Below, in pieces: positions 15,990 through 38,704 of a DNA stretch of 42,540 nucleotides. How positions within the stretch are numbered: the first letter of the stretch is position 1; every line of letters begins with the position of its first letter. The DNA comes from a virus. Its lineage: Duplodnaviria > Heunggongvirae > Uroviricota > Caudoviricetes. The notes beneath the pieces are model-generated. The model saw nothing but the letters and a program-made list of their open reading frames with translations, was not told where the DNA came from and made no database searches. The translations under genes and the position numbers were made by a program. The stretch lies in IMG/VR virus record IMGVR_UViG_2541047682_000006, one strand, 5' to 3'.

Positions 15990-15992
15990 AAA

Positions 15993-18722: not shown

Positions 18723-18732
18723 TGTTTCTCAC

Positions 18733-20164: not shown

Positions 20165-20168
20165 GGTT

Positions 20169-20516
20169 TCAACTCACAGGGATGGTTAACGAAAGTGGCT
20201 GGCCGGTGTCGTTGTGCTGACCGGTTAACGTGACCGTCATTCGCCCGTCAAAACTGCGCTCAGTGGTGACGGATGACAGGGTGACGCGGGGTTCCCATTT
20301 CAGCACCGCCATGTAACAGGCGACCTTAATCTGCAACTCAAGCGCCGGAGTCTGCGGCTGGTCAATCATTGACGCCAGCAACGAGCCGTAATCACGACGC
20401 ATCACCCGCGAGCCGACCGGTGTGCGCAGGATATCGCCGATACTCTGGCTGATATGCTCAAGGTCAGTGACAGTCAGGCCATCACTGCGATTCATTCCGA
20501 GATAACGCGCAGTCAT
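20169..20516 (-). CDS. W: Baseplate protein (P2 gpW-like, GPW/gp25 family)
   Basis: 115-aa ORF between V and J. Confidence 0.8.
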   Translation of the reverse strand: MTARYLGMNRSDGLTVTDLEHISQSIGDILRTPVGSRVMRRDYGSLLASMIDQPQTPALELQIKVACYMAVLKWEPRVTLSSVTTERSFDGRMTVTLTGQHNDTGQPLSLTIPVS

Positions 20517-21148
20517 AGAGGTCCCCCGGTTGTGCCGCCGCTGTCGCCGGGGTGTTTATGGGTATGCAGTACCTTACCGTTTGATGAGAGTTCACCGCCG
20601 GTGTGTTCAATGTTGCCGCGCATCGTCCCGCCCTTCTGCACTTCCAGCGTGCCGGTAATCAGCCTGTTGGTGCAGACCACCTCCGGTGTGTCCAGGGTGA
20701 CGCGGGTTGATGCTTTCACCATGACCACCGGCACCGTGGCAGTAACAGAATCAGAAGCCGTCACGCTGGCCGTTTTAATTCCGCTTGCCGTGAGCGCACT
20801 GGTTTCGGGTTCATACTCAATCACCGCCCCGTCAGGGAAACGGATGTACAGGGCATCCGCCGACGCAGACGGCGCGGGGTTATCACCGGAATAAATCCCC
20901 GGCAGAACGAACGCCGTGTCGAGTTCACCGCCCACGGCCAGAATCAGCACCTGTTCCCCCTCGGAAGGTGCCCACCACGTGCGCGAACGTCCGGCGCGAT
21001 GGGTCAGCCACTGAAGCCAGTCGGTGCACATGCCGCCGGTCTGCACACGGCAGCGACCGGCGTTAAGGTCGGTTTCGACGATAATGCCGGTGCGGATCAT
21101 GTTGCGCAGTGCGCGCGCGAGTTCCTGAATATTTGCGAGAGTGTTCAT
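20513..21148 (-). CDS. V: Baseplate spike / assembly protein (P2 gpV-like)
   Basis: 211-aa ORF overlapping W by 4 nt. Confidence 0.8.
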   Translation of the reverse strand: MNTLANIQELARALRNMIRTGIIVETDLNAGRCRVQTGGMCTDWLQWLTHRAGRSRTWWAPSEGEQVLILAVGGELDTAFVLPGIYSGDNPAPSASADALYIRFPDGAVIEYEPETSALTASGIKTASVTASDSVTATVPVVMVKASTRVTLDTPEVVCTNRLITGTLEVQKGGTMRGNIEHTGGELSSNGKVLHTHKHPGDSGGTTGGPL

Positions 21149-21214
21149 AACGGGAAGGATGCCGTCGGGTCATACCGGCGGCAATGTGACGATGAGGTGT
21201 CGGGAATGGCACAA

Positions 21215-21667
21215 CTAACGGTCGAGGTGAGCCAGGATAATCTCTTCAATCATCTGCACATCCTCACCGGTAAAGCCGAGCAGAGGACGCGCCGGATAAT
21301 CAATTTTCTTACCGTCTTTCCGGTTTTCTTCCGACAGACCGAACTGATGCACGCTGGCAATTTTCGGTGACTTCCCGCCGTAAAACTCCATTGATGCCTG
21401 TTCCGGGCTGGCGCGGATATGCAAAAAACGACTGGTGATAAGTTTCGCAAACATTTTTCGCTTAACGCGACCGGTCTTTTTTCTGGCGCTCTGCTGCTGG
21501 CGTGGTGCGTAGGGTGTGCCGTCCGGGGCTTTCTGTGCCATCACCCGGCGCTGCTGACTCTGCCGCAGACGTTTCGCCAGTTCGGAGCTCAGTCGCCGAC
21601 GCCCTGACGGTGACAGCGATTCAGTCAGTCCGGTCAGCCGGTCTTCAAAACGCTTAAACTCATTCAT
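21215..21667 (-). CDS. S: Tail completion protein (P2 gpS-like)
   Basis: 150-aa ORF downstream of R. Confidence 0.8.
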   Translation of the reverse strand: MNEFKRFEDRLTGLTESLSPSGRRRLSSELAKRLRQSQQRRVMAQKAPDGTPYAPRQQQSARKKTGRVKRKMFAKLITSRFLHIRASPEQASMEFYGGKSPKIASVHQFGLSEENRKDGKKIDYPARPLLGFTGEDVQMIEEIILAHLDR

Positions 21668-22127
21668 CCCACTTACTCACCAGTTCGCCATTGATATAAA
21701 GCTCCATCGGGCGGGTGACCGGCTCCGGCGGCGGAGGTTCCGGGATATTCTTCACATGCAGCGCACCGTCAACCTCACTGACCAGCGTGCGCTCGGTCAG
21801 CATCAGGCTGATGCTGATATCAAAGCTGCTGTCATTGTTGATGTCCGCATAAAACGTGAAGCCCTTTTTCTGGCCTTCGTCGGTGGTCATGATGTCGGGC
21901 TGATTTTCCCGCAGCCACGCCAGCACCGGCACGATGAGCAGGTCAAAATCACCGGTAAAGTCGGTCACAATGACATTGAGCGTGTAACGCTTTTCGAATG
22001 ACAGCGACGTCGCCAGTGTGGAGGCAATACTCCCGTTATCCACGAATATCCGCAGCATATCGGGGTTAGTTTTCAGCACCGTGACGGCATCAGTCAGCGC
22101 CCTGCGCAGGCTGTCGGGTTTGAGCAT
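21660..22127 (-). CDS. R: Tail completion protein (P2 gpR-like)
   Basis: 155-aa ORF overlapping S by 8 nt. Confidence 0.8.
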   Translation of the reverse strand: MLKPDSLRRALTDAVTVLKTNPDMLRIFVDNGSIASTLATSLSFEKRYTLNVIVTDFTGDFDLLIVPVLAWLRENQPDIMTTDEGQKKGFTFYADINNDSSFDISISLMLTERTLVSEVDGALHVKNIPEPPPPEPVTRPMELYINGELVSKWDE

Positions 22128-22380
22128 CGTTTTCGTCCTGACAGTGTTTAATCATTTTTACCTGGCTGGCACAGCGTGCCAGCGCGTTCTCAAGCTGCCG
22201 GATATCGGCACTTAAATCGCCGTTCGTCTGCGGGTCACTGCCCGGCATCGGGCAAAGGCTCACTTTCGGGCAGGCGTTGGCGACAATCACTGGCGTCAGT
22301 GCAGGCCGGACGCTGGTGCAACCGGCGCACAGCATCAGGCAGGTCAGCGCCATACCAGCGGCGAAAATCCTCGTTTTCAT
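22090..22380 (-). CDS. lysC: LysC (Rz1-like outer-membrane lipoprotein spanin), nested out of frame in lysB
   Basis: ATG at 22378-22380 gives MKTRIFAAGMALTCLMLCAGC with a lipobox (LCAGC), 96 aa, embedded in the lysB reading region. Confidence 0.65.
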   Translation of the reverse strand: MKTRIFAAGMALTCLMLCAGCTSVRPALTPVIVANACPKVSLCPMPGSDPQTNGDLSADIRQLENALARCASQVKMIKHCQDENDAQTRQPAQGAD

Positions 22381-22660
22381 TAAGTAACCTCGTGATGGTT
22401 TTCTCGCGCTGTGCTTCACGTTTCGCGGCGTTCTCCAGTTCCTGACGCAGTGCCACCTGCGCCAGCTCGTTTTTGTCTGCCCTGGTAAGGGCAACATGAA
22501 GCTGGTTTTTCAGCATGGTGATGGTCGTCTGCTGTTCACTGGCGACGTTGTTCGCCCTGTCCAGCGAGGCGCGCAGGCTGGCATTTTTATGTTTCACCAG
22601 AAACAGACCGGCCACCGCCAGCGATAACAACACGACCAGCACAATCATCAGCTTTGACAT
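22235..22660 (-). CDS. lysB: LysB (Rz-like inner-membrane spanin)
   Basis: 141-aa ORF with N-terminal TM helix (LMIVLVVLLSLAVAGLFLV) and coiled-coil remainder. Confidence 0.75.
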   Translation of the reverse strand: MSKLMIVLVVLLSLAVAGLFLVKHKNASLRASLDRANNVASEQQTTITMLKNQLHVALTRADKNELAQVALRQELENAAKREAQREKTITRLLNENEDFRRWYGADLPDAVRRLHQRPACTDASDCRQRLPESEPLPDAGQ

Positions 22661-23073
22661 AGTTCCCGCCCCTCAAGACGCTGACGACAGGCTTTACGTA
22701 TCAGCCGGAAAAACAGCGACGCCACAAGATAAATCAGCGCGGTAAAAATCCACCCGGCAGCGACCAGCGAGATAAACGTCGCCACCATCACCACCAGAGC
22801 CGCCGCCCGTCTGCGCCACGGCACCGGCTGCAAAAACAGCGACGTGACAATCTTCACGGCCAGCGATTCCGGCGGCAGCTCCCGCCCGTAGCGTTCCAGC
22901 ACATACTCCGTGGCATACACGCCGACACCACCGGCAACCACACAGATAACCGTCGCCAGAATCGCCCAGGTGGCGACAAAACTGACGGCCACGCTCTGCG
23001 GGTAAATCAGGGACAGTGCCAGCATCAGCGCCAGCGACACGTTCAGCATCAGTGAAAGGGATAATTTCTTCAT
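22648..23073 (-). CDS. lysA: LysA (lysis timing membrane protein)
   Basis: 141-aa multi-TM ORF between the endolysin and lysB. Confidence 0.75.
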   Translation of the reverse strand: MKKLSLSLMLNVSLALMLALSLIYPQSVAVSFVATWAILATVICVVAGGVGVYATEYVLERYGRELPPESLAVKIVTSLFLQPVPWRRRAAALVVMVATFISLVAAGWIFTALIYLVASLFFRLIRKACRQRLEGRELCQS

Positions 23074-23087
23074 GGTGTTTACTCCGT

Positions 23088-23585
23088 TTAAGCCGGTACG
23101 CCGCCAGCGGTACGCCAGACGGTGACCAGTTTTTCCAGTGAATGCTCACGCTGACCGTAACCGGCACCCGGCAGGGACGCCCAGATATTGCGACAGCGTG
23201 AAATGGCGCGCTCAATACGTCCCGCCCGGACGTCATCCAGTGCACCGCGTTCGCGGATCAACTGAATGGCAAGTCTGTCCTGTGACAACGGACTGAAATC
23301 CGGCAGGGCAAGCTGTTTGCGGTAATGCGGCCAGAACAGGTAAAGCTGCTGATAGCGACCGGAGGCCGTGGATTTTTCACCGCGACGGTTAAACACCTTC
23401 GCCGGTCGGCCATGCGCGAACGGGTGGTCACTGTAGTCGGTGAAAATTTCCGGCTTTCCGTCCAGTCCGGTGACTATCACGTCATAGCCCCGGTTTTTCG
23501 TCAGCGGATGGTTCGCCGTCCCTTCGGACACTGCCAGCATGTCGAGAAAGGCGGCGATATTCTGATGCGTGTTAATTACCGGCAT
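23088..23585 (-). CDS. K: Endolysin (P2 gpK-like lysozyme)
   Basis: 165-aa ORF following the holin gene. Confidence 0.8.
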   Translation of the reverse strand: MPVINTHQNIAAFLDMLAVSEGTANHPLTKNRGYDVIVTGLDGKPEIFTDYSDHPFAHGRPAKVFNRRGEKSTASGRYQQLYLFWPHYRKQLALPDFSPLSQDRLAIQLIRERGALDDVRAGRIERAISRCRNIWASLPGAGYGQREHSLEKLVTVWRTAGGVPA

Positions 23586-23866
23586 TACGGTTTCCCCCTG
23601 CCCTTAAAGCGGCGCTGAATGGCAATCTCAATCACCTGATAACCGGCGATACCCAGCATGGAGCCGATGCCGCACACCGCAGGCAGTGACAGGTCAGGAA
23701 ACTGCACCAGAACAACACCGGCAACCATCGAGACAAAACCACCGAGCAACATGCGCCCGATAAACAGACGCGGGGTGATGGGTTCACCACCGGCAAGCAC
23801 CTTGCCGACAACAATCAGCACCCCAATCATGAAAAGCGACAGGACGCTTTTTTCTTCTGCTGTCAT
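23585..23866 (-). CDS. Y: Holin (P2 gpY-like)
   Basis: 93-aa ORF with two or three hydrophobic helices, directly upstream of the endolysin. Confidence 0.8.
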   Translation of the reverse strand: MTAEEKSVLSLFMIGVLIVVGKVLAGGEPITPRLFIGRMLLGGFVSMVAGVVLVQFPDLSLPAVCGIGSMLGIAGYQVIEIAIQRRFKGRGKP

Positions 23867-23869
23867 GCG

Positions 23870-24073
23870 TTACTCCCACAGATTGACAGTTTCAGCCACG
23901 GGCGCGGTCTGAACGTCGGGCAGTTCGACGGCGGAGCCATGTGGCAGCACCGCACCCAGTTCAGCCAGTCCCGGATTTGCGGCGAGCACGGTCTCAACCA
24001 CGCCCTCAGTGCGCCCGTAATACCGGACACAAATGGCGTCGAGCGTGTCGCCCTGTAGCGCAAAGGTCTTCAT
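23870..24073 (-). CDS. X: Tail protein X (P2 gpX-like)
   Basis: 67 aa from the ATG at 24071-24073 (MKTFALQGDTLDAICVRYYG...); track ORF extends upstream in frame. Confidence 0.8.
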   Translation of the reverse strand: MKTFALQGDTLDAICVRYYGRTEGVVETVLAANPGLAELGAVLPHGSAVELPDVQTAPVAETVNLWE

Positions 24074-24582
24074 CAGATTTGACTCACGATGCAGCGCGGC
24101 TTGTCCTGGATGCGCGCCACTGCCCAGCGCATATCCCGCCACAGCTCATCAATGGTGCTGTCAATGCTGTCGGCCTTCTTGTCTCCTTTCGCACTGGCAT
24201 CCACGCCGCGGTAACGCTCATAAAGCGACGCGGTCGCCATCGCACACACGGCGCGCTCGTAGTAAAAAACTTTGATACTTTCACCGTCGATATCGTCCGC
24301 CGGAACGTCCGCCAGACGCGTAAAACCGGCGGCAATTTTCTGTTCGCGGTACTCGTACAGCTCCGCATTTGTTTCCGCCATGCCTGACTTGATGGCCTCA
24401 CGCAGACGGGCGGGGGCGACGGTCTGCTCAAGGCGCATACGTTCCCGGACGCGCTTCGGGTCGATATCGGGAAAAAAGAACGTGTTTTTAATCACCGGCT
24501 CGTCGCCTGCCGGTTGCGGGATGACCACCGTACCCTCACCGGACACGGGAGCCTCCTTTCGCGGAATAATCAGCGTCATCAT
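24073..24582 (-). CDS. L: Head completion / stabilisation protein (P2 gpL-like)
   Basis: ~169 aa from the ATG at 24580-24582 (MMTLIIPRKEAPVSGEG...); stop overlaps the X start. Confidence 0.8.
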   Translation of the reverse strand: MMTLIIPRKEAPVSGEGTVVIPQPAGDEPVIKNTFFFPDIDPKRVRERMRLEQTVAPARLREAIKSGMAETNAELYEYREQKIAAGFTRLADVPADDIDGESIKVFYYERAVCAMATASLYERYRGVDASAKGDKKADSIDSTIDELWRDMRWAVARIQDKPRCIVSQI

Positions 24583-24681
24583 GACTACCTCTGAAAAGTC
24601 GGGCGGTGGACGCCGGTGCAGTGTCAGGTGATTCACCCTCACTGACCGGCGTGCCGCCCTGGCGCGGGGCGCATTCGGTTG

Positions 24682-25425
24682 TTAACTGGCTTTCTTTTTC
24701 GGGCGTCCACGTTTTGCCGGTGTCACGCTCCGGGTCTTACGCGTGGCACGGGTGGCCGCTTTGGGTTGCGGCTCCGGCTTAGGTTTCAGCTCCCGCTCCA
24801 GTCGCTCAATCTCTTTTTTGACGCCTGCCTGACAGTCGAGCTGTGTCGCACGTTGCAGGTGAGCCAGCGCACCGGCGGCATCACCACCGTCACGCAGAAA
24901 CAGACCGGTGATTTTGTGCAGCTTTGCGCGCACTTCATCAGGCATGTCAGCAGCGGCAGTCAGTTCAAGGGTCTCCGTCAGCAGGCGGGTATCCACAGAC
25001 TCACCGGCCGCGTGGGCGCGCATGGCCGCGAGCGCGACCTCCTCGGTGAACATATACGGCGGGGTGCGGCGGTGTTTACCCGGCATGGTCAGACCGTATT
25101 TCAGGGCATAACGGGCAATCTCCAGCGCACCGGCAATATCGCCGGTATCCAGACGCCACAGCATGACCGTCATCAGAATGTCATCCTGTGCGCCTTTGCC
25201 CTGCTCCAGCACGCCGTTCACCCACGGCAACCAGAACGGCAGCAGTTCGCGCTTTTTCGCGGCCTTCAGCTCTTTTGAATAAATCGCTTTCAGTGTGCGC
25301 TGGTCTGCGGCCAGCTTGACCAGCATCTGCTCATAGACAGTTGCATGTCGCAGCGGGGCGGCTTCCCGCTGCGCGGTCATCGCTGCCGAGACCCGCATCA
25401 TGTGGCGCTGTGCGGGACTCGTCAT
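24682..25425 (-). CDS. M: Terminase small (endonuclease) subunit (P2 gpM-like)
   Basis: 247-aa ORF between N and L. Confidence 0.8.
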   Translation of the reverse strand: MTSPAQRHMMRVSAAMTAQREAAPLRHATVYEQMLVKLAADQRTLKAIYSKELKAAKKRELLPFWLPWVNGVLEQGKGAQDDILMTVMLWRLDTGDIAGALEIARYALKYGLTMPGKHRRTPPYMFTEEVALAAMRAHAAGESVDTRLLTETLELTAAADMPDEVRAKLHKITGLFLRDGGDAAGALAHLQRATQLDCQAGVKKEIERLERELKPKPEPQPKAATRATRKTRSVTPAKRGRPKKKAS

Positions 25426-25428
25426 CGG

Positions 25429-26502
25429 TTACGCTCCCGGCTCTGCGGTCGCCTTAGCCGGTGTGGAGAAATCACCGACCTTAATTTTTTCCACCAGACA
25501 ACCGGCGGCGTAGTCTTCCACCACGTAATCAATGTTCATTGACTCGTAGTTCTCCACGCGGTCGAGTTTCGGGTTTTCCACAATCACGCGGCGATGGCTG
25601 TCATCCATGTAGTAGATGGACAGGTTTTCCAGCTTCGTGATGAGCATCGCATCCGCCGGGAAGTACGGGACGCGTACCGCCGGCAGGTTACCGATGCGTT
25701 TCTGGCTGATGATGACGTCAGCGGCCAGCATTTCGCTGTTGTCCTGCTCCTTGTTAACGATGGGGAAATACTTGTCCGCCAGTAGCTGACGCCCCACAAT
25801 CACCACAAGGTCAGGGTCTTCCTGATACCACGGTTCAATCAGGTTGTTGGTCGCATCCATCACCAGTGCATCAAGGCTGGCATAATCACCGCCCTTACCC
25901 ACGCGGATGACCTCAGAGGTCGTGTGACCTTCCTCGTCAGTGACCTTGCTCATCACACGCGCCGGGGCTTCATTGCGGTATTTCTGCAGCCAGCCGACCG
26001 CCACATCCTGCAACATCGGATTACTGTTGCGGTCAGAGGTTTCTGCACGCTTCACGCCGTTAAAACCGGCCATGATGAAATCAAGGGACTGGCGTTTGAT
26101 AATGGCGTTACGGATACGGAGCTGGAAATCCTGATAACGCGCCCACAGGTCCAGCGTTTTGTAGCGGATATAAAAATCGAAGTTAATCTGGTCGCATTCG
26201 TACTTGTTAGACGCCAGCTTCGAGAAGTCCTTCGGCTGACGCTCGGTGCCACCGGCGGTGTCGGTGGTGCTGGCGATGGAGCCGGTGACACCGATACCAA
26301 TTTTTTCCCCTTTCATTTCGCTGACCGGCACAATGTTGATGCGGGTCAGAAAGTCAGAGGACTCCTGCATGGTGTTCATCAGGGTCTGGGTGACCGACGG
26401 TTCAACGGTGAATTTTTTCGACACATCACCGGCGTCGATGCCGTTCAGCTCGGCAACACGGGACAGGTAGGCATTAAATTTAAAGCGGGTTTCCTGGCGC
26501 AT
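25429..26502 (-). CDS. N: Major capsid protein (P2 gpN-like)
   Basis: 357-aa ORF downstream of O. Confidence 0.85.
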   Translation of the reverse strand: MRQETRFKFNAYLSRVAELNGIDAGDVSKKFTVEPSVTQTLMNTMQESSDFLTRINIVPVSEMKGEKIGIGVTGSIASTTDTAGGTERQPKDFSKLASNKYECDQINFDFYIRYKTLDLWARYQDFQLRIRNAIIKRQSLDFIMAGFNGVKRAETSDRNSNPMLQDVAVGWLQKYRNEAPARVMSKVTDEEGHTTSEVIRVGKGGDYASLDALVMDATNNLIEPWYQEDPDLVVIVGRQLLADKYFPIVNKEQDNSEMLAADVIISQKRIGNLPAVRVPYFPADAMLITKLENLSIYYMDDSHRRVIVENPKLDRVENYESMNIDYVVEDYAAGCLVEKIKVGDFSTPAKATAEPGA

Positions 26503-26560
26503 AGTTTTTCCTGAAATTAAGGGTTAATCGTGAAGGTTTTCCCGGACTGACTGACGCCGG

Positions 26561-27274
26561 TCAGCAGTTCGTCATCAGGGCGTCACCGCCACCACCGGTG
26601 GCCTTGCTGCGGCGCTGCTGGGTCAGACTTTCGGTGTGGTCGAGACTGTTTTTCAGGCGGGTGAATGCCTGGCTGGTTTCATCCGCCCTGTCAGTCACCT
26701 CCTGCTTAAGTGCGGAAAAGGCGGTTTCCATCTCAGCGAGGCGCTGCTCAGTGGCGCTCAGTTTTTCCTGCACATGTTCAGCAACAGCGGTCACCGCTTC
26801 ATGCACGTCATTCAGACGGGCATCATCGCTGGCCTGTTTGCGGCCAAAAATGGACTTCACCTTTTCGGTCAGGACGGTGAACACTGTTTCAGGCAGGTCT
26901 TCAAATTCCAGCTCAACAGGCGTTGCCACTGAAATCAGGTTTTCAGGGCTTAATTTGAAGCGGTTCAGGGGGTTGTGTTTTGCCGTGCGGCAGAATTCCA
27001 GGTATTCCGTGCCGAGGCTTGCCGGGTCATCGGTGACGGCCAGACCCACCAGATAACATTTGCCGGTGTTGGCAAAGTTCGGCTGAATTTCCATTGAGGT
27101 GTAGACCTTCTGCGCGGCCTTGTTCATCGCGATAAGGTCATCGGTCGGGGTGATTTTCGCAAACAGCGCCCATTTGCCTTTCAGCGCCGAATCATCGTCA
27201 ATCTTTTCGGCCTTAAGTTCGGCCACATCGCCATAACGTTTAAAAATACCGTCAGGCAGGATGCCGCGCAGATG
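26561..27274 (-). pseudogene. O: Capsid scaffold gene O, C-terminal fragment (gene interrupted by an IS element)
   Basis: Track ORF 26561..27310 matches gpO from ...HLRGILPDGIFKRYGDVAELKAEK onward; its first 12 codons (27275-27310) are read from IS sequence. Confidence 0.75.
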
Positions 27275-27360
27275 TTGCGTATTACCGTGAAGGAGATCGG
27301 TGAGTAACATCGATGGAGATCGGTTCGTGTCACTTTCACAGAACCGTTTTTAAATTACCT

Positions 27361-28110
27361 TCACTGATCTCCTTCGGTCAACGGAGATTGTATTTTCCGC
27401 ATTGATTCTCCTTTAAGTTCGATCTTGATACTGCCATGAACCAGTCGATCTAGGATGGCATCCGCATGTGTGGAGTCTCCGATCATTTTGTACCAGTTTT
27501 CCACCGGCAACTGGCTCACTACGATGATTGAGCCTCGTTGGTACATCAGATCCACTATTTCCAGCAGGTCGCTACGCTGTTCTGATGAGAGAGGTTCCAG
27601 CCCCCAGTCATCCAGAAGCAGCAGATCGCTATTATTCAGCCTGGTCAAAAGTTTGCTGTATCTTCCATCAGCATGCCCCTGATAGCACTGTTCCATCAGC
27701 GCTTTAAGGCGATAATAGTAGACCTTGTATCCCTGTCGGCAGGCATTATGACCAAGTGCACATGCCAGGAACGTTTTACCGCTGCCGGTGGCCCCGGTCA
27801 GTAAAATATTTTGTTTCAGGGTTAACCAGTTTCCCTGACTGAGTGAACGGATGAGGGCCCTGTCCAGCCCTCTATTGTTACGATAATCCAGCTTTGATAA
27901 CTCAGCATTAAGTCTGAACCGTGCATGTTTGATCAGACGCTCTGCCTTCCTGTTTTCACGGCAGGTTAGTTCTTCTGCTGTCAGTAATGACAGGCGTTCT
28001 TCGAAGCCCAGCTCCTGGTATGTGCCCGGTTGAGCAAGTTGCTTTTTAAGCGCATCACGGAAGCCGGTGAGTTTAAGTGCGGTCAGTTGTTCGTAAAGAT
28101 GATTCATCAT
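27361..28110 (-). CDS. istB: IstB-like ATP-binding transposition helper (IS21 family)
   Basis: 249-aa ORF with Walker A (GATGSGKT) and Walker B (LLLLDDWG), typical of IstB. Confidence 0.85.
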   Translation of the reverse strand: MMNHLYEQLTALKLTGFRDALKKQLAQPGTYQELGFEERLSLLTAEELTCRENRKAERLIKHARFRLNAELSKLDYRNNRGLDRALIRSLSQGNWLTLKQNILLTGATGSGKTFLACALGHNACRQGYKVYYYRLKALMEQCYQGHADGRYSKLLTRLNNSDLLLLDDWGLEPLSSEQRSDLLEIVDLMYQRGSIIVVSQLPVENWYKMIGDSTHADAILDRLVHGSIKIELKGESMRKIQSPLTEGDQ

Positions 28111-28121
28111 TGGATCCCGTA

Positions 28122-29663
28122 TCAGTGGTAATACTCACTGCCGCGTACGTTTTCGTGTTCCATCGTGGATAACAGATCTGGTTTTGGATCCTGAACAGGT
28201 TGTTTATCCAGACCTTTTTCCAGGATCGATTTAATACCTGACAGACGCCATACCTTTGTTTTCAGAGCTCTTGCACATGCTGCATTAAGTCTGGCTTTAC
28301 TGTATTTTTTATGAAGGTTCAGGAGTCCAAGGCAGAAGCGATAGCTTTGTTCCGGATGTGGACGAGAGTTCAGTATATGAAGCACATAACTATGAGTTTC
28401 ACTGCCTATGTGCCCCGCCCATTCCAGAAGACGCTCTGGCGTCCAGGTGGCATGCTGTCGATGAGCTTCAGGCATGTGCTCGTTGCGGGTACTGTAGCCA
28501 TAAGTACGCTTGCGCGGGTGCACAGCAACCTCCTGCCCCTGATTGAAGAGTCTTACCAGTTCTCCGGAGATCCATGCTTCCAGTTGCTGGCCTAACAGCG
28601 AACATGGAACCGAGTAGTAATGTTTGTCGATTTCCACGTGGTAATCGGCATGAACTCTGACTTTCTTCACCAGGGTGTAACTGTAACTGGCTTCAGGAAG
28701 AGGCTTCAGTGCGGGTTTATCAAGCTGGATGAAGAGTTCTGCACGTGAATAACCCAACTTCTGCATTATTTTGTTATTCAGTCTTTCCAGCAACTCCCGA
28801 ATGCGCTGATTAAGCGATGCAAGGCTGTAGAAGATCTCATGCCTGATTCGGGCCATGATCCAGCGTTCAACAACCTGAACGCCAACTTCAGCTTTGGCTT
28901 TATCTTTCGGTTTACGTGGCCGCGCAGGCAAAACTGCGACATTATAATGCTCAAGCATCTGCTGGTAGGTAGGGTTAACGTCAGGATCATACTTACATGC
29001 CCTGGATGTGGCGCTTTTCAGATTGTCCGGAACAACAAGTTCAGGAACGCCACCCAACCACTGGAAGCAGCGAACATGACTCATCACCCAGTCTTCAAGC
29101 TGCTGAGACCAGGTGGCCTCTGCCCATGTGTAACTTGATGCCCCGAGAACAGCTACGATGACCTGAGCAGTTCTTATTTCTCCGGTCTCAGGGTCGGTAA
29201 CGCCAACGGTAGGTCCACAGTAATCAACGAAAAGTTTTTCGCCAGCTTTATGTACCTGACGCATTGATGGTGAAGTGGTTTTGAGCCATTCACGGTACAT
29301 CCGGCAGTAATGGTTATAGCTGTAAAAACCGCCTGGATTACGCTCACAGTATTCTTCCCAGAGTAGCTGCAGCGTCACGCATTTATTACGCAGTTCCCGG
29401 TGTACTGTAGCCCAGTCAGGCAGAGAGTGCTTCTTCATCTTAACCTGGGTCTGAAGGAACGCATGTTTTAGTTTTGTATCATCCCATCCTGTAGGTAAGG
29501 GCCACTGCTTTATGCCAAGTTGAGCCGCCCGATTAGCATATCTGGATACAACGGAAGGGGAGATTGCAAGACTACGACCAATTTGTCGATGGCTGAGTCC
29601 AACACCGTATTTAAGCCTAAGAATTTCTTTAAGTTTTCTCATAGAAATTGGAACTGTTGGCAT
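28122..29663 (-). CDS. istA: IstA-like transposase (IS21 family, DDE)
   Basis: 513-aa ORF with N-terminal HTH region and a central DDE-type catalytic core, immediately upstream of istB. Confidence 0.8.
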   Translation of the reverse strand: MPTVPISMRKLKEILRLKYGVGLSHRQIGRSLAISPSVVSRYANRAAQLGIKQWPLPTGWDDTKLKHAFLQTQVKMKKHSLPDWATVHRELRNKCVTLQLLWEEYCERNPGGFYSYNHYCRMYREWLKTTSPSMRQVHKAGEKLFVDYCGPTVGVTDPETGEIRTAQVIVAVLGASSYTWAEATWSQQLEDWVMSHVRCFQWLGGVPELVVPDNLKSATSRACKYDPDVNPTYQQMLEHYNVAVLPARPRKPKDKAKAEVGVQVVERWIMARIRHEIFYSLASLNQRIRELLERLNNKIMQKLGYSRAELFIQLDKPALKPLPEASYSYTLVKKVRVHADYHVEIDKHYYSVPCSLLGQQLEAWISGELVRLFNQGQEVAVHPRKRTYGYSTRNEHMPEAHRQHATWTPERLLEWAGHIGSETHSYVLHILNSRPHPEQSYRFCLGLLNLHKKYSKARLNAACARALKTKVWRLSGIKSILEKGLDKQPVQDPKPDLLSTMEHENVRGSEYYH

Positions 29664-29852
29664 AGGTATCCTTTACCGGAATGGCAAAAGATACAGATCA
29701 ACACACCTGTGAAGTTCCAATAACATTGATGGAGATCACTGAATAACAAAATGAGTCAAAAGTGATCTCCATCGATGTTATTCAGCGATCTGTTCAAATG
29801 TTATTACCCGATCTCGATGGAAGTTATTGAGTGATCTCCTTTCATGAAAATA

Positions 29853-30001
29853 CGCAGATGTTCCAGGTTAATGCGGCAACCGTAGACACGCGGGTCAAAG
29901 GTTTCAGCCATTTCCTGAATATCCTGCGCACTGATGACACGCCCGTCACAGGTGTCACCCTCAACGCCGATACGAAAGAATTTTGAGACTTTTTTTGCCA
30001 T
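29853..30001 (-). pseudogene. O: Capsid scaffold gene O, N-terminal fragment
   Basis: Track ORF 29804..30067 contains MAKKVSKFFRIGVEGDTCDGRVISAQDIQEMAETFDPRVYGCRINLEHLR from the ATG at 29999-30001, then runs into IS sequence to a stop at 29804. Confidence 0.75.
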
Positions 30002-30174
30002 TGTCAGGAGTCCTGAATAGTGATTAGAGGAGTCACATGTCGGCATCAGTTTCCCGACGATGCGCATCCTCCGCCATCAGTCCCGGATGGCTTATCACTG
30101 ACACAACAGCACCTTAGCGAATCGCAGGGCGCGACTCAGTAGCCTTGCCGTGTATTCATCACGGCGAGGTATTC

Positions 30175-31947
30175 ATGACCATCACCACAGACACCACTCT
30201 TTTACACGACCCGCGTCGTCAGGCGGCGCTGCTGTACTGGCAGGGATTTTCCGTGCCGCAGATTGCCGCCATGTTGCAGATGAAACGCCCGACAGTGCAG
30301 AGCTGGAAACAGCGCGACGGCTGGGACAACGTTGCCCCCATCAGCCGTGTCGAAATGAGCCTGGAAGCGCGGCTGACCCAGCTCATCATCAAACCGCAGA
30401 AAACCGGCGGTGACTTCAAGGAAATTGACCTGCTGGGACGCCAGATTGAACGACTGGCACGGGTAAATCGTTACAGCCAGACCGGCAACGAGGCAGACCT
30501 TAATCCGAACGTCGCTAACCGCAACAAAGGCGGGCGGCGCAAACCGAAAAAAAATTTTTTCAGTGACGAGGCCATCGAAAAGCTGGAGCAGATTTTCTTT
30601 GAGCAGTCTTTCGACTATCAGTTGCACTGGTATCGCGCCGGGCTTGAGCACCGCATCCGCGATATCCTGAAATCCCGCCAGATTGGCGCGACGTTTTATT
30701 TTTCCCGCGAGGCGCTGCTGCGCGCCCTGAAAACCGGCCATAACCAGATTTTTCTGTCGGCCAGTAAAACGCAGGCGTATGTGTTCCGCGAATACATCAT
30801 CGCCTTTGCCCGGCTGGTTGACGTTGACCTGACCGGTGACCCGATTGTCCTGGGCAATAACGGCGCAAAACTGATTTTTCTCGGCACCAACTCCAACACC
30901 GCACAGAGCCATAACGGCGACCTGTACGTCGACGAGATTTTCTGGATCCCGAATTTTCAGGTACTGCGTAAGGTGGCATCAGGTATGGCCTCACAGAGTC
31001 ACCTGCGCTCGACCTATTTCTCCACCCCGTCCACGCTGGCGCACGACGCCTACCCGTTCTGGTCAGGTGAACTGTTCAACCGGGGACGCGCCAGCGCCGC
31101 CGAACGCGTGGAAATCGACGTCAGTCATAACGCCCTTGCCGGTGGGCTTCTCTGTGCGGACGGCCAGTGGCGGCAGATTGTCACCATTGAGGACGCCCTG
31201 AAAGGTGGCTGCACGCTGTTCGACATTGAACAGCTCAAACGCGAAAACAGCGCCGACGATTTTAAAAACCTGTTCATGTGTGAATTTGTTGACGACAAGG
31301 CGTCGGTGTTCCCGTTCGAGGAGCTGCAACGCTGCATGGTCGACACGCTGGAAGAATGGGAAGACTATGCGCCGTTTGCCGCCAATCCGTTCGGCTCCCG
31401 CCCGGTCTGGATTGGTTACGACCCGTCACACCGTGGCGACAGCGCCGGATGCGTGGTACTGGCACCGCCGGTGGTGGCCGGTGGCAAATTCAGAATACTT
31501 GAGCGTCACCAGTGGAAAGGCATGGACTTTGCCACTCAGGCGGAATCCATCCGCAAACTCACCGAAAAATACAACGTCGAATACATCGGTATTGATGCCA
31601 CCGGCCTCGGTGTCGGCGTGTTCCAGCTCGTGCGCTCGTTCTATCCCGCCGCGCGCGATATCCGCTACACGCCGGAAATGAAAACCGCAATGGTGCTCAA
31701 GGCAAAAGACGTCATCCGCCGTGGCTGTCTGGAATATGACGTCAGCGCCACCGACATCACCAGCTCGTTTATGGCTATCCGCAAGACCATGACCAGCAGC
31801 GGACGCAGCGCCACTTATGAGGCCAGCCGCAGCGAGGAAGCCAGCCACGCCGACCTCGCCTGGGCGACCATGCACGCCCTGTTAAATGAGCCACTCACCG
31901 CCGGTATCAGCACCCCGCTGACATCCACCATTCTGGAGTTTTACTGA
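30175..31947 (+). CDS. P: Terminase large (ATPase) subunit (P2 gpP-like)
   Basis: ~590 aa from the ATG at 30175 (MTITTDTTLLHDPRRQAALLYWQGFSVPQIAAM...); divergent from O across the late-promoter region. Confidence 0.85.
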   Translation: MTITTDTTLLHDPRRQAALLYWQGFSVPQIAAMLQMKRPTVQSWKQRDGWDNVAPISRVEMSLEARLTQLIIKPQKTGGDFKEIDLLGRQIERLARVNRYSQTGNEADLNPNVANRNKGGRRKPKKNFFSDEAIEKLEQIFFEQSFDYQLHWYRAGLEHRIRDILKSRQIGATFYFSREALLRALKTGHNQIFLSASKTQAYVFREYIIAFARLVDVDLTGDPIVLGNNGAKLIFLGTNSNTAQSHNGDLYVDEIFWIPNFQVLRKVASGMASQSHLRSTYFSTPSTLAHDAYPFWSGELFNRGRASAAERVEIDVSHNALAGGLLCADGQWRQIVTIEDALKGGCTLFDIEQLKRENSADDFKNLFMCEFVDDKASVFPFEELQRCMVDTLEEWEDYAPFAANPFGSRPVWIGYDPSHRGDSAGCVVLAPPVVAGGKFRILERHQWKGMDFATQAESIRKLTEKYNVEYIGIDATGLGVGVFQLVRSFYPAARDIRYTPEMKTAMVLKAKDVIRRGCLEYDVSATDITSSFMAIRKTMTSSGRSATYEASRSEEASHADLAWATMHALLNEPLTAGISTPLTSTILEFY

Positions 31948-32981
31948 TGAGCAAGAAAAAAGGGAAAACACCGCAACCTGCGGCAAAAAAAATGACCGCC
32001 AGCGCCCCGAAAATGGAGGCATTCACCTTTGGTGAGCCGGTGCCGGTACTCGACCGCCGTGACATTCTGGATTACGTCGAGTGCATCAGTAACGGCAGAT
32101 GGTATGAGCCGCCGGTCAGCTTTACCGGTCTGGCGAAAAGCCTGCGTGCTGCCGTGCATCACAGCTCACCGATTTACGTTAAACGCAATATTCTGGCCTC
32201 GACATTTATCCCGCATCCGTGGCTTTCGCAACAGGATTTCAGCCGCTTTGTGCTGGATTTTCTGGTGTTCGGTAATGCGTTTCTGGAAAAGCGTTACAGC
32301 ACCACCGGTAAGATCATCAGACTGGAAACCTCACCGGCAAAATATACCCGCCGTGGCGTGGAGGAGGATGTTTACTGGTGGGTGCCGTCCTTCAACGAGC
32401 CGACACCTTTCGCGCCCGGTTCCGTGTTTCACCTGCTGGAGCCGGATATTAATCAGGAGCTGTACGGCCTGCCGGAATATCTCAGCGCCCTTAACTCTGC
32501 CTGGCTGAATGAGTCGGCCACGCTGTTCCGCCGCAAGTATTACGAAAACGGCGCGCATGCCGGATACATCATGTACGTCACCGATGCCGTGCAGGACCGC
32601 AACGATATCGAAATGCTTCGCGAAAACATGGTGAAGTCGAAAGGCCGCAATAACTTTAAAAACCTGTTTCTCTATGCCCCACAGGGGAAAGCCGACGGCA
32701 TTAAAATTATCCCGCTCAGTGAAGTGGCGACGAAGGACGATTTTTTTAATATCAAAAAAGCCAGCGCCGTTGACCTGCTGGATGCGCACCGCATCCCCTT
32801 TCAGTTGATGGGCGGCAAGCCGGAAAACGTCGGGGCTCTGGGTGATATTGAGAAAGTGGCAAAGGTCTTTGTCCGCAATGAACTTATCCCGCTACAGGAC
32901 AGGATTCGGGAAATAAACGGCTGGCTCGGTCAGGAGGTCATCCGCTTTAAAAACTACTCACTGGACACTGACAACGGCTGA
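31947..32981 (+). CDS. Q: Portal protein (P2 gpQ-like)
   Basis: 344-aa ORF; ATG overlaps the P stop (ATGA); followed by a terminator and cos. Confidence 0.85.
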   Translation: MSKKKGKTPQPAAKKMTASAPKMEAFTFGEPVPVLDRRDILDYVECISNGRWYEPPVSFTGLAKSLRAAVHHSSPIYVKRNILASTFIPHPWLSQQDFSRFVLDFLVFGNAFLEKRYSTTGKIIRLETSPAKYTRRGVEEDVYWWVPSFNEPTPFAPGSVFHLLEPDINQELYGLPEYLSALNSAWLNESATLFRRKYYENGAHAGYIMYVTDAVQDRNDIEMLRENMVKSKGRNNFKNLFLYAPQGKADGIKIIPLSEVATKDDFFNIKKASAVDLLDAHRIPFQLMGGKPENVGALGDIEKVAKVFVRNELIPLQDRIREINGWLGQEVIRFKNYSLDTDNG

Positions 32982-32986
32982 ACATC

Positions 32987-33008
32987 GCCGCCTGCGGGCG
33001 GCTTTTTT
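32987..33008 (+). terminator. Rho-independent terminator downstream of Q
   Basis: GCCGCC/GGCGGC stem with 4-nt loop followed by TTTTTT at 33003-33008. Confidence 0.6.
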
Positions 33009-33150
33009 ACACCCCGTCATCACGCCCTCACACGCTCACCACCGCACAAAACACCCCGCAGACACACCAGCGCCTCAACGGGCAGACTAAGCGCCGTCAC
33101 GACGCGCTGAGACGCTGAAAAAATAAAATCAGCACCACCGCCAGCGCGCA

Positions 33151-33169
33151 GTGCTTTCCCCGCCTCGCC
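33151..33169. other. cos site: 19-nt P2-type cohesive end sequence
   Basis: Plus strand GTGCTTTCCCCGCCTCGCC is the exact reverse complement of the P2 cohesive end GGCGAGGCGGGGAAAGCAC as I recall it; lies next to the portal gene as in P2. Confidence 0.75.
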
Positions 33170-33484
33170 CGCCCGCTTCATGGGGCGGTTTTAATGCAGT
33201 TGCATGATGAAACTGAAATCACATCAGCACTGACCGAAACTGACAAAAAGAATAGTATCTGACACATGCAAAAACACGCACTTAATATACGCCTATCTAT
33301 AGCTCCTACAGGATTGTCAAAAAACGACCAACTCGTCATAGCGTAAACACATTTGGCTCAACGAACACTTACGTTATATGCCTCTTGAACATATCAAAGT
33401 CTTAAGGTAGATCTTTACCACTAAGTGGCTATATTAAGCTGCTTTTTTACATACAATAAAAGCTTTATCGTATGAGGCATAAAA

Positions 33485-35701
33485 ATGGAACTTAGATTAA
33501 AAAATGTTACCAGTTATAAGAAAGACGCCTTCACAATACTGAATCTTGAAAAAAGAGTAAACATACTATACGGCCAAAATGGTTGTGGCAAATCTACCAT
33601 TTCAAATTATTTCTACGACTCTACACACACAGATTATAACGAGTGTGAATGTACCCTTCTTGACAATTACAAACCTCTTGTTTACAACACTAAATTTATT
33701 GAAGATAACTTCTATAATGCACAGGAACAAAAAGGTGTTTTTACATTAAGTAAAGAAAATGCAGATATTGAAAAACAATTAATTGAAAAAGAAGCAATTA
33801 AACAGCAACTCACAGAGCAATATAGACAAAAAAAAGGAGTGTTATTGAAATTAGAAGCAGAAATGGAAAAAAAAGAAAATGAATACATCGAATCGATCTG
33901 GAAAAAAACAGAACCAATCAGAAACTCTGTACTAAAAACCTTAATGAAAGGTAAAGTTGGCTATAAAAGACCTTTTTTTGAGATGATAAAATCATCCTCA
34001 CCAATCACCTTTATTAATTTAAATGATATAGCAAAAGAATACTCTATACTATTAGAAAATAGAAACAATGAAACCGCATTAATAACTCCTTTACATCCAT
34101 ATACCCCATCAATTGATGATGTAAATACATTAGCAACACCTATAATAGATACAAGCAATAGCTATTTATCAGAAACCATTAATAAACTTCATAATCTTGA
34201 CTGGGTAAAAAAAGGTAAAGAACATTATTTAGACGGTTCTACATGTCCGTTTTGTCAGGAAAAAACTATTAGTCACGAATTTTTAAATGCCCTTAAATCA
34301 ATATTTGACGAAAGTTATTCAAAGAAAGTAAAACAGCTCTCAGATATAAAGTCAGTTTATGAGAAAAATACCATATATCATTTTAACGAAATACAAAACA
34401 ATATATCATCATGTGCACTAATCAATGAGAAAGATAAAGAGAACATTATTTCCAATATTAAAATATTGCAAAACATTGCAGAAAAAAATTTAATAAACAT
34501 TATTGATAAGATCAACAATCCATCAACATGCGTTACATTAGAAATTGATAAAGAACTAGAAAATCATGTTCAGGAAAGCATAGGCGCTGTTAACAAGAAA
34601 ATAAGAGACATAAATGATAAGGTTAAAAAACTCAAAGAGTATGAGAATAAAATCGGAAAACAAGTTTGGGGGGCTCTCCATGCTTTTTGCAGCGATGATT
34701 TAGAGAATTTATCCAAACACAAAGAAAAATTCTTTGATATCAAAAAGAAAGTTCATGATGAATTAAATAATATTGAGCAACAAGGAAAAGAAAATAATCT
34801 CACAATAAAAGCATTGCGAGATAAAATATCTAACATTGATTCTACGATAGACTCAATAAACACCCATTTAAAAAATCTAGGGATCTCTGGTTTTTGTATT
34901 GAAAAACATGCAGAAAGAAAAGATATGTACATTATATCTCGACCAGGGCATACAAAAAACCAAAATGTTTATAGATCTCTTAGCGAAGGTGAAAAAACAC
35001 TAATAACGTTTCTTTATTTTTTAGAGTGCTGTAAAGGTAAAACCGATAAAAATGATACCGATAGCAGGGATATTTTTATTGTTATTGACGATCCAATATC
35101 TAGTCTATCGCAAAACTATGTCTACGACATCGCATCAATTATTCATCACCACATTATAAAAAATGAATTAACAAAGAAGGTATTAATCCTTACTCACAAT
35201 CTTTATTTCTTTCATGAACTTATTAAGCTATCTCCTAAAAGCAGAGAAGACAAACTATTTAAGAAAAACTATTATCTAGGTAGAGTAACGAAAAATGATT
35301 TTAGTATAATTACTGAAATACAAAAAAACAGCATACAGAATGAATATCAATCTTTGTGGCAAATATTAAAAGATGCAAAAGATGGCAAAGCAAACAAAAT
35401 CATAATACCGAATATTATGAGAAACATACTAGAATATTATTTTGCATTTGTTCATAGAACAGATGCTCTACAAGATGAATTAACAAAGTTGGCACGCGAC
35501 GATAGCAACAGTGATTTCAAAGCATTCTACAGATACATTAACAGAGGTTCTCACTCTGATGCGGTAAATATTACTGATATGGGCGACATAGACCCAGATA
35601 AATACCTAAAACAATTGAGAACAATATTTTCAGCTACTGGTGACGAAATGCATTATTTAAAAATGATGGACGAACTAGAAGAGGAAAACGTTACCGCTTA
35701 G
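33485..35701 (+). CDS. RloC/PrrC-like ABC ATPase (738 aa) with coiled-coil insert carrying a CxxC motif; putative anticodon nuclease or abortive-infection ATPase
   Basis: Walker A GQNGCGKST near the N-terminus; long Lys/Glu-rich coiled-coil region containing CPFC; ABC signature-like LSEGEK, Walker B IFIVIDDP, H-loop LTHN; C-terminal MRNILE...H arrangement (R-x3-E then His). AT-rich single gene at the P2 old/tin position with AGG Shine-Dalgarno. Confidence 0.5.
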   Translation: MELRLKNVTSYKKDAFTILNLEKRVNILYGQNGCGKSTISNYFYDSTHTDYNECECTLLDNYKPLVYNTKFIEDNFYNAQEQKGVFTLSKENADIEKQLIEKEAIKQQLTEQYRQKKGVLLKLEAEMEKKENEYIESIWKKTEPIRNSVLKTLMKGKVGYKRPFFEMIKSSSPITFINLNDIAKEYSILLENRNNETALITPLHPYTPSIDDVNTLATPIIDTSNSYLSETINKLHNLDWVKKGKEHYLDGSTCPFCQEKTISHEFLNALKSIFDESYSKKVKQLSDIKSVYEKNTIYHFNEIQNNISSCALINEKDKENIISNIKILQNIAEKNLINIIDKINNPSTCVTLEIDKELENHVQESIGAVNKKIRDINDKVKKLKEYENKIGKQVWGALHAFCSDDLENLSKHKEKFFDIKKKVHDELNNIEQQGKENNLTIKALRDKISNIDSTIDSINTHLKNLGISGFCIEKHAERKDMYIISRPGHTKNQNVYRSLSEGEKTLITFLYFLECCKGKTDKNDTDSRDIFIVIDDPISSLSQNYVYDIASIIHHHIIKNELTKKVLILTHNLYFFHELIKLSPKSREDKLFKKNYYLGRVTKNDFSIITEIQKNSIQNEYQSLWQILKDAKDGKANKIIIPNIMRNILEYYFAFVHRTDALQDELTKLARDDSNSDFKAFYRYINRGSHSDAVNITDMGDIDPDKYLKQLRTIFSATGDEMHYLKMMDELEEENVTA

Positions 35702-35924
35702 GCCGCATATTATCGTTTTGGGTAAGAACGACGGTGCTTACGCACCGTCTCCCAACGCCCAAAGCGGTAGCGGTTGTACTGGCGTACATTCACCAGCTTT
35801 AACATGAGGCAATCTCCATGCCAGCACTATTGTTGCCAATAGCAGCCTTTATACCCTTTGTACAAAGCTAATACCAAGAGTAATGCAAAGTAGATGTCCC
35901 AAGCGGTAACGGGGCTATTCTATG

Positions 35925-38702: not shown

Positions 38703-38704
38703 TA

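Follow-up and report, generated by a model that had tools for sequence, protein, structure and literature searches.

Gene O of a P2-type prophage is divided by an insertion sequence of the IS21 family, ISEc12, and the evidence presented below indicates that, very probably, this is an ordinary insertion event in which the element landed recently in a prophage that is otherwise intact. Events of this kind are already well understood. Viable P2 and P4 virions require gpO (PMC7552001), and we therefore infer with good support that the production of infectious particles is almost certainly lost, and the original prediction that the prophage is probably capsid-deficient is sound. The window analysed here is the whole 42,540-nucleotide stretch of IMG/VR virus record IMGVR_UViG_2541047682_000006, and the coordinates of its relevant features are collected in Table 1.

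Table 1. Coordinates of gene O, the ISEc12 element and the surrounding prophage in the window
Feature	Coordinates	Strand	Basis
P2-type prophage	6044..41894	.	P2 attP core matches, cos, full-length P2 essential proteins
O 3' fragment	26561..27275	-	His48 codon to stop; tblastn gpO 45-284, 98.8%; PF05929 positions 40-268
Target-site duplication GATGT, left copy	27271..27275	.	junction comparison with other copies
Complete ISEc12 of the IS21 family (2581 bp, ends TG...CA)	27276..29856	-	full-length identity to copies L002-L006
istB-proximal terminal inverted repeat	27276..27342	.	repeat search
istB, 249-aa AAA+ helper ATPase	27361..28110	-	PF01695 IstB_IS21, E=2e-67
istA, 513-aa DDE transposase	28122..29663	-	PF00665 rve, PF22483 Mu-transpos_C_2
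istA-proximal terminal inverted repeat, GGAGATC-type repeats	29789..29856	.	repeat search
Target-site duplication GATGT, right copy	29857..29861	.	element ends AATACGCA in all copies, GATGT flank next
O 5' fragment	29857..30001	-	codons 1-48 plus 1 nt native; tblastn gpO 1-50, 100%; PF05929 positions 1-49
Late promoter region P_O/P_P	30041..30111	.	coordinates transferred from P2 annotation

Among the essential genes of the prophage, O alone is broken

The prophage sits between yegQ and yegR (names taken from the collinear annotation of strain CEA212U) and is bounded by att cores at 6044-6070 and 41868-41894, the first matching the P2 attP core with two mismatches and the second exactly. Its cos site spans 33151-33169, and its length is 35,851 bp, or 33,265 bp once the element and one copy of the target-site duplication are subtracted. 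Searches with P2 proteins (tblastn) reveal O as the sole broken essential gene, with the remaining essential genes full length. Indeed, 37 P2 proteins besides gpO are full length here, at identities of 84-100%, and the C protein is 99% identical to that of P2. Also full length are int, C, cox, Y, K, lysA, lysB, lysC and both cargo loci. Furthermore, int, C, cox, the lysis genes and the cargo loci do not differ from their counterparts in a relative whose O is intact, and thus the lysogeny module, lysis genes and cargo loci are intact in sequence, as predicted. A tblastn search with P2 gpO found no second copy of O within the window.

Two fragments that match the Phage_GPO family (PF05929) border the istA-istB element, one at 29804-30067 (E=5e-20) and the other at 26561-27310 (E=2e-85), and this confirms the earlier proposal that O is split by an IS21-family element. 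When the element and one GATGT are deleted, the empty site GCCGCGCAGATGTTCCAGG is restored exactly as it occurs in P2 and in CEA212U, and the rejoined gene is an unbroken 855-nt open reading frame (ORF) of 284 codons. Alignment of the joined fragments to P2 O, a check suggested with the original prediction, gives differences at 9 nucleotides and one amino acid (A181V; 283/284 residues identical), and the product matches the full PF05929 profile. The gene also occupies the same place as its P2 counterpart: it opens the late operon, with N following it and the divergent P-Q operon on its other side, and the promoter spacing is the same. The promoter coordinates could be mapped from P2 because the region is collinear without indels, such that the O start at 30001 and the P start at 30175 keep the P2 spacing. 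By this mapping, transcription of the O operon starts at about 30041 and the activator site lies at about 30081-30111. The P_O/P_P region is intact, lies upstream of the insertion and is identical to that of CEA212U. Whereas gpO of P2 is uninterrupted, the gene in the window breaks off after codon 48, within the part that encodes the protease domain.

The element has the organization expected of an IS21-family member. Specifically, istA (with its rve domain) is followed by a co-directional istB (IstB_IS21), and both are oriented the same way as O. In an identical copy these genes are annotated as an ISEc12-family transposase (WP_001298859.1) and as WP_001016257.1. The terminal inverted repeats are imperfect, 67 nt long and bounded by TG and CA (TGCGTATT...AATACGCA), for which the repeat search pairs 27276-27291 with 29841-29856 and 27290-27342 with 29789-29841; more copies of the GGAGATC-type motif occur at 29720-29846. 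Over its full 2581 bp the element shows no differences from five other copies (L002-L006), and a 2578-bp query is 100% identical to copies whose RefSeq annotation reads 'IS21-like element ISEc12 family'. Matches are present in 1778 of 5426 complete E. coli genomes, with a median of three places per carrying genome. Among phage records none carries the element (71% coverage in two pieces). Because the element is complete, is bordered by a matching duplication, and can be removed to leave exactly the empty-site sequence, the insertion is not a chance arrangement.

The insertion appears recent and private to one strain

The same prophage is found at the same yegQ/yegR site in strain CEA212U (NZ_CP166707.1), where O is uninterrupted and the insertion sequence is absent. 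Between this copy and the prophage in the window there is one SNP in 32,679 bp, with none in the 20,000 bp to the left of the element and one in the 12,679 bp to its right. Across window 1-7656, where the left-hand host flank runs into the prophage, two SNPs occur in 7,656 bp.

A search of related strains for the uninterrupted allele, which had been recommended, also located the empty site in 1,499 of 5,426 complete E. coli genomes, and at least 10 of these matches are 100% identical over the 600-bp query. The O::ISEc12 junction was found in none of the 5,426. In the E. coli type strain ATCC 11775 (NZ_CP033092.2), O is again intact, and a copy of ISEc12 resides inside the AAA_13 cargo gene with a 6-bp duplication, GCAAAG. 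The 600-bp O empty site is 100% identical in ATCC 11775 and CEA212U, and the CEA212U copy, for which the flanks were compared, also shares the yegQ/yegR site. Together, these comparisons show an insertion that is very recent and private to the strain, in a prophage that hardly differs in any other respect from uninterrupted copies in related E. coli. The two junction sequences constitute a strain-specific marker that could serve to type the strain or to date the insertion.

Consequences for the prophage

The sequence of events can be reconstructed as follows. A transposition-competent ISEc12, encoding both the IstA DDE transposase and the IstB AAA+ helper, would have moved by cut-and-paste into codon 48/49 of O in a resident P2-type prophage, and in doing so would have duplicated the 5 bp GATGT. 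In gpO, residues 1-141 form the protease domain and residues 195-284 the scaffold domain, and the S107A mutant is protease-dead (PMC7552001). The insertion divides this N-terminal serine-protease domain such that no single ORF holds residues 1-141, S107 among them: the 5' piece encodes residues 1-48 without S107, and the 3' piece retains S107 and the scaffold domain but is without residues 1-47 and the start signals of the gene. His48, at the break, is a putative catalytic residue. The 5' frame continues into the element as far as a stop at 29804-29806, yielding a predicted 65-aa peptide, MAKKV...INLEHLRIFMKGDHSITSIEIG. If a functional scaffold/protease is absent, gpN, gpQ and gpO would remain unprocessed and proper procapsids would not be formed. 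The prophage would then be unable to yield infectious P2 particles or to help a P4-type satellite, and annotators can treat it as probably non-productive in both respects. Such a prophage would be at the first step of decay ('grounded'), rather than a product of selection on its cargo.

The effects of the insertion may extend beyond O. In the P2 annotation, O heads a late operon that also includes Y and K, and whose order is O-N-M-L-X-Y-K-lysA-lysB-R-S. Since the lysis genes lie downstream of O in one operon, the element may reduce their expression, and a 2.6-kb insert in the first gene probably lowers the expression of downstream head, lysis and tail genes alike. A scan of the element for a strong intrinsic terminator on the strand of O found none, and such polarity is therefore a prediction. 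Similarly, a scan of the istB-side end for an outward hybrid promoter that might serve the 3' fragment of O found none; read by eye, this end has a 4/6 match to a -35 element and no -10 element in the flank.

Could the lesion nevertheless be silent, such that the prophage still spreads? This would be so if another P2-like prophage provided gpO in trans, or if the scaffold made from a chimeric ORF were sufficient. The chimeric ORF (26561-27310) is 249 codons long, has its ATG within the end of the element, takes codons 1-12 from it, and retains scaffold domain 195-284. It might be translated at some level, but the upstream sequence that we inspected contains no obvious Shine-Dalgarno sequence before the ATG; moreover, S107-dependent processing is required and the protease domain is split. 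With regard to supply in trans, O-bearing places number two in about half of the closest strains listed, but CEA212U, the closest of all, has only one. A P2-type lysogen is also immune to a homo-immune helper, which limits the co-residence of such a helper. Even though co-resident prophages can rescue defective ones (PMC2669165), we consider a silent lesion unlikely. Mitomycin C induction, proposed earlier as an experimental check, is unsuitable for this prophage because P2-type repressors are not cleaved in the SOS response (PMC2669165, PMC5322425).

Cargo genes and domestication

The original prediction went further by suggesting that the prophage is domesticated, with selection maintaining its cargo while its capsid genes decay. 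The cargo consists of an AAA_13 gene and a locus with a recombinase-like gene and a DUF5677 gene. For the AAA_13 protein, PADLOC gives a match to its candidate system PDC-S06 (E=1e-254) and a weak one to PrrC. PADLOC returned no hits for the recombinase-like/DUF5677 locus or for the three genes to the left of yegQ. Both cargo loci are intact, as domestication would have it, and defective P2-like elements with conserved defence genes have been described for which domestication is an open possibility (PMC13586616).

For the prophage in the window, however, domestication is improbable, because there is a single lesion in 33 kb with all other genes full length, because the prophage is nearly identical to a copy with an intact O, because the junction is missing from all 5,426 genomes, and because the same prophage in ATCC 11775 carries the insertion sequence in the cargo gene itself. 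A long-domesticated prophage might be expected to carry several lesions, or an old defect shared by its lineage. Instead, O alone is broken, and the element that breaks it is identical to copies elsewhere. ISEc12 also inserts in N, P, A and tail genes, as well as in many non-phage genes. Thus, direct comparison portrays the inactivation of this prophage as a fresh accident and not as evidence of domestication, and the case has little significance beyond annotation.

Boundaries of the element and length of the duplication

The element had been described as 2578 bp long (27275-29852), with an 8-bp target-site duplication. The 8-bp string CGCAGATG is indeed present at both junctions, at 27267 and 29853, and the full shared string is 10 bp, CGCAGATGTT, but not all of it is target duplication. 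All 14 other copies of ISEc12 that we compared start TGCGTATT and end AATACGCA regardless of their flanks, and therefore the duplication is the 5 bp GATGT that is found on both sides. The right-hand CGCA of CGCAGATG is the terminus of the element, and its agreement with the 4 bp that lie upstream of the target is fortuitous. This corrects both the boundaries of ISEc12 at the O site (to those in Table 1) and the length of its duplication. For the same reason, the native N-terminal part of gpO comprises 48 codons plus one nucleotide (29857-30001) rather than 49 codons, and residues 49-50 (L, R) of the 5' piece are a chance match from the end of the element.

Target duplications in the IS21 family range from 4 to 8 bp. 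The duplication is 5 bp in 10 of the 14 other copies (L005 with a mismatch), while among the remaining four (L010, L013, L016 and L017) one has 6, one has 7 and two have 8 bp; a length of 5 bp for ISEc12 has also been reported independently (PMC10711316). A 4-bp duplication with an element that starts TTGCG is ruled out by L008, L009 and others, in which a non-T base precedes TGCG. Across 15 sites, the target consensus shows only a weak T at duplication position 5, and a likeness between the target and the end of the element (TGCG...ACCGT, near O nt 115-125) is too weak to claim.

Alternatively, the duplication could be 8 or 9 bp, CGCAGATG(T), bordering an element from which the final 4 bp are missing. 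The literal strings do agree on both sides, and ISEc12 now and then produces duplications of 6-8 bp, but this arrangement requires both that a 4-bp terminal deletion removed the transposase cleavage site and that the duplication is unusually long, whereas a 1-in-256 coincidence otherwise suffices. Given also that every other copy ends AATACGCA and that the terminal inverted repeats start exactly with TG and finish with CA, we regard the longer duplication as highly improbable, with the two arrangements separated by parsimony and not by sequence alone. Equally far-fetched is an assembly artefact in which the element was misplaced inside O, for although ISEc12 is a multi-copy element and the junction is seen in the window alone, a misjoin would produce neither a perfect 5-bp target repeat nor O fragments that exactly abut complete termini, and finished genomes contain eight comparable insertions in O that are genuine.

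Other insertions of ISEc12 and other grounded prophages

An insertion that resembles the one in O is known from E. coli ST131 clade C, in which ISEc12 interrupts tssM in >99% of clade C genomes (PMC10711316). In both cases the same element, with the same 5-bp duplication, splits one essential gene of a multi-gene machine. The tssM/ImcF site (GCAGT, the reverse complement of ACTGC) is represented by copy L003 in our comparison set. Whereas the tssM insertion is fixed in its clade, the insertion in O is present in no other complete genome among the 5,426. Prophage Sp4 of O157 Sakai provides a second parallel, with an insertion sequence in its terminase gene nu1 (PMC2669165). There, as here, a 'grounded' prophage that is complete in other respects carries a single element in a gene for morphogenesis or packaging, although Sp4 belongs to a different phage family and carries a different insertion sequence.

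By using matched junction queries, we observed eight independent ISEc12 insertions within P2-type O genes or a short way upstream of them, excluding the one in the window. These occur in both orientations, in different O alleles and strains, and between O nt -144 and +371, with three distinct events falling within 9 bp (nt 115-123). The same query design yields two events around N and one around P, and by our calculation the binomial probability that at least 8 of 11 events fall in one of three regions is approximately 0.009. Tentatively, then, the 5' part of P2-family O genes could be a preferred landing zone for ISEc12, an idea that we hold as doubtful. Possible causes include a local target preference of IstA/IstB, or selection for insertions close to the promoter of the late operon, where one hit would silence both capsid and lysis genes. 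The repeated arrival of ISEc12 at the start of the P2 late operon is a modest hint, which, if confirmed, would be relevant to how insertion sequences ground prophages.

Structure of the prophage

The window carries a P2-type prophage with P2 attP cores at 6044-6070 and 41868-41894. When all P2 proteins were compared with the window by tblastn, Q, P, N, M, L, X, Y, K, LysA/B/C, R, S, V, W, J, I, G, FI, FII, E, T, U, D, Ogr, Int, C, Cox, B and A were each found to be full length, mostly at 96-100% identity. The capsid scaffold/protease gpO is the sole P2 protein in two pieces; the first covers residues 1-50 (30001-29852) and the second residues 45-284 (27283-26564). The same search recovered none of the P2 accessory genes orf30, fun(Z), tin, old and orf91 in the window, and the fun(Z) and tin-old positions are occupied by other cargo. 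The tail-fibre gene H (15993-18722, minus strand) encodes a 909-amino-acid variant, longer than that of P2, that resembles gpH only over its first ~207 residues (84% identity) and last ~200 residues (52%), which would imply a receptor specificity unlike that of P2. Outside the prophage, a three-gene cluster adjoining yegQ (1-4050, minus strand) encodes PcfJ-like, DUF1266 and 715-amino-acid DUF4034 proteins.

Features of the window and ISEc12 insertions in or near P2-type O genes (for insertions, location is that of the target duplication in O coordinates and orientation is that of the IS relative to O)
Feature	Location	Strand or orientation	Duplication	Remarks
yegQ	4538-5899			Host gene flanking prophage; name from collinear CEA212U annotation
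Cargo at fun(Z) position	13095-15040			Three parts, below
Small divergent hypothetical ORF	13095-13484
Short tyrosine-recombinase-like protein	13507-14193			CEA212U annotates 194 aa
DUF5677 protein	14198-15040
cos	33151
AAA_13 ATPase, 738 aa	33485-35701	+		Single cargo at gpQ-gpA hotspot; PADLOC PDC-S06, E=1e-254
yegR	42223-42540			Host gene flanking prophage; name from collinear CEA212U annotation
98207	O nt -144..-140	same	5 bp
EC45	O nt 34-38	same	5 bp
4114	O nt 50-54	same	5 bp
Ec-U18	O nt 115-121	opposite	7 bp
NMBU-W13E19	O nt 116-123	opposite	8 bp
GIMC1409	O nt 118-122	opposite	5 bp
Window	O nt 141-145	same	5 bp
OkiPb01716	O nt 249-256	same	8 bp
30859_5#12	O nt 367-371	opposite	5 bp

Identity and boundaries of the inserted element

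Between the two O pieces, and on the same strand, lie ORFs for a 513-amino-acid protein with an rve integrase core and a Mu-transposase C-terminal domain and for a 249-amino-acid IstB_IS21 ATPase (E=2e-67). The 2578-bp stretch originally delimited here matches, at 100% identity, many E. coli sequences annotated "IS21-like element ISEc12", an element carried by 1778 of 5426 complete genomes. Thus, an IS21-family istA-istB element does divide O, as the original prediction held, although its junctions were mis-parsed.

The true ends emerge from comparison with other ISEc12 copies. The first five reside in unrelated contexts (lom, tssM/ImcF, DUF5983, mliC and a P2-type A gene), and all five run four bases beyond the predicted right boundary (…AAAATACGCA) and start with TGCGTATT on the left. 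Nine further copies brought the comparison to 14 others. Because the base preceding TGCG is T, G or C among these copies, the element starts at TG. ISEc12 is therefore 2581 bp with TG…CA ends and occupies 27276-29856; over this whole length, the window's copy is identical to five others. The outer limits of its terminal inverted repeats (27276-27342 and 29789-29856), which bear repeated GGAGATC-type motifs as expected for the IS21 family, coincide exactly with these ends.

With the ends so placed, the target duplication is GATGT, 5 bp (27271-27275 and 29857-29861), rather than the 8 bp first proposed. The string CGCAGATG is genuinely repeated, and the full identical string is CGCAGATGTT (10 bp; 27267-27276 and 29853-29862). 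This longer repeat arises because CGCA upstream of the duplication equals by chance the last four bases of the IS, to whose terminus the 14-copy comparison assigns it, and because the T after the duplication equals the first base of the IS. Such chance identity is a trap when duplications are called by eye. Among the 14 other copies, duplications are 5 bp in ten (one imperfect), 6 bp in one, 7 bp in one and 8 bp in two, and a 5-bp duplication was reported for ISEc12 in tssM at one of the same sites compared here (PMC10711316).

Reality and age of the insertion

Rejoining the O fragments by removing 27276-29856 and one GATGT, a check proposed with the original prediction, yields an 855-nt ORF of 284 codons with 9 nucleotide differences from P2 O and a single amino-acid change (A181V). 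The empty-site sequence GCCGCGCAGATGTTCCAGG matches both P2 and E. coli CEA212U (NZ_CP166707.1), a related strain in which the same prophage occupies the same chromosomal site with its GPO gene annotated at 855 nt. The complete element, perfect duplication and exact gene restoration strongly oppose an assembly artefact.

Base by base, the window differs from CEA212U nowhere in the 20,000 bp of 7276-27275 and once in the 12,679 bp of 29862-42540, at intergenic position 35794. The left host flank and prophage left end (1-7656) contain two differences, both in host sequence within the PcfJ-like gene (3329 and 3820). Of 5,426 complete genomes, 1,499 carry the uninterrupted O site, with at least 10 matches reaching 100% identity across the 600-bp empty-site query, and neither junction of the window's insertion occurs in any of the 5,426 genomes; the IS was not found in any phage record searched. 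Near-identity to CEA212U, unique junctions and the identity of the IS to other copies together show that the insertion happened very recently and is confined to the source strain.

Consequences for gpO and the phage

The His48 codon lies within the duplication. The 5′ fragment encodes residues 1-48, then L49 and R50 by coincidence and 15 IS-encoded residues before a stop at 29804-29806. The 3′ ORF opens at an ATG at 27310 inside the IS end, preceded by no Shine-Dalgarno sequence, and adds 12 foreign residues to H48-C284. No ORF at the split gene holds the entire protease domain. In P2, gpO residues 1-141 form a protease, abolished by S107A, that cleaves gpN, gpO itself and presumably gpQ, residues 195-284 form the internal scaffold needed for P2-size procapsids, and neither P2 nor P4 forms viable virions without gpO (PMC7552001). 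Since no intact protease domain remains and gpO is essential, we infer that the prophage is unable to produce infectious particles or to support a P4-type satellite. The original functional prediction is reasonable to this extent, but the statement that capsids cannot be built is slightly too strong, given that the chimeric 3′ ORF, if translated, would retain the scaffold domain.

In the P2 annotation, O heads a late operon followed by N, M, L, X, Y (holin), K (endolysin), lysA, lysB, R and S. Because neither a strong intrinsic terminator on the O strand inside the IS nor an outward hybrid promoter at the IS was found, the 2.6-kb insert may, rather than must, lower expression of these downstream genes. 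Mitomycin C induction, suggested earlier as an assay, would tell nothing here, because P2 is the prototype non-inducible phage with a repressor that has no RecA-cleavage motif (PMC5322425, PMC2669165), and the window's C protein is 99% identical to P2 C.

Cargo genes and the question of domestication

Both cargo loci are intact, as predicted. The AAA_13 ATPase, located at a hotspot described by Rousset et al. (PMC9122126), matches a candidate system in the PADLOC defence-system profiles and, weakly, the C-terminal portion of PrrC, an anticodon nuclease (E=1e-12). None of the three proteins at the fun(Z) position has a PADLOC match; this locus may be an accessory or defence module that has yet to be characterised.

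The original prediction saw in this arrangement a domesticated prophage retained for its cargo. However, intact cargo is silent on selection because uninterrupted relatives have intact cargo equally, and the prophage, virtually identical to intact copies, bears only one lesion, and that lesion is unshared. Moreover, the E. coli type strain ATCC 11775 (NZ_CP033092.2) has this prophage with an intact O, and there ISEc12 (8530-11110 of that locus, L013) splits the AAA_13 cargo gene and is flanked by a 6-bp duplication, GCAAAG. ISEc12 also resides in the A, N, P and tail genes of P2-type phages, P4 psu, lom, tssM, cbtA-linked genes and plasmid tra genes. Domestication is therefore not supported, and the simplest reading is that an abundant, active IS inserted haphazardly in DNA that is dispensable. 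Conserved defence genes do occur in defective P2-like elements, whose domestication is treated in the literature as an open question (PMC13586616) that this O locus does not inform. In the O insertion, a known element has acted in a known way on a known gene.

Other ISEc12 insertions around O

Eight other complete E. coli genomes have ISEc12 either within P2-type O or a short distance upstream of it, and both orientations occur. These alleles are independent, as each gives a 284-codon O once the IS and one duplication copy are removed. Junction queries of the same design anchored in N and P served as controls and recovered two independent events in N, one of which four strains share, S88 and MS7163 among them, and a single event in P, common to four near-identical strains. 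By our calculation, the binomial probability of at least 8 of 11 events in one of three equal bins is ~0.009, with small event numbers and only roughly equal detection ranges. No target consensus was found among the compared insertion sites. The O region may be a local ISEc12 hot zone, or selection may favor promoter-proximal hits in the late operon; we regard this as a lead rather than a finding. Three different events fall within 9 bp (O nt 115-123), which is unlikely by chance. In window coordinates, the O-region insertions (L007-L010 and L015-L018) span 29857-30146 and 27040-27170.
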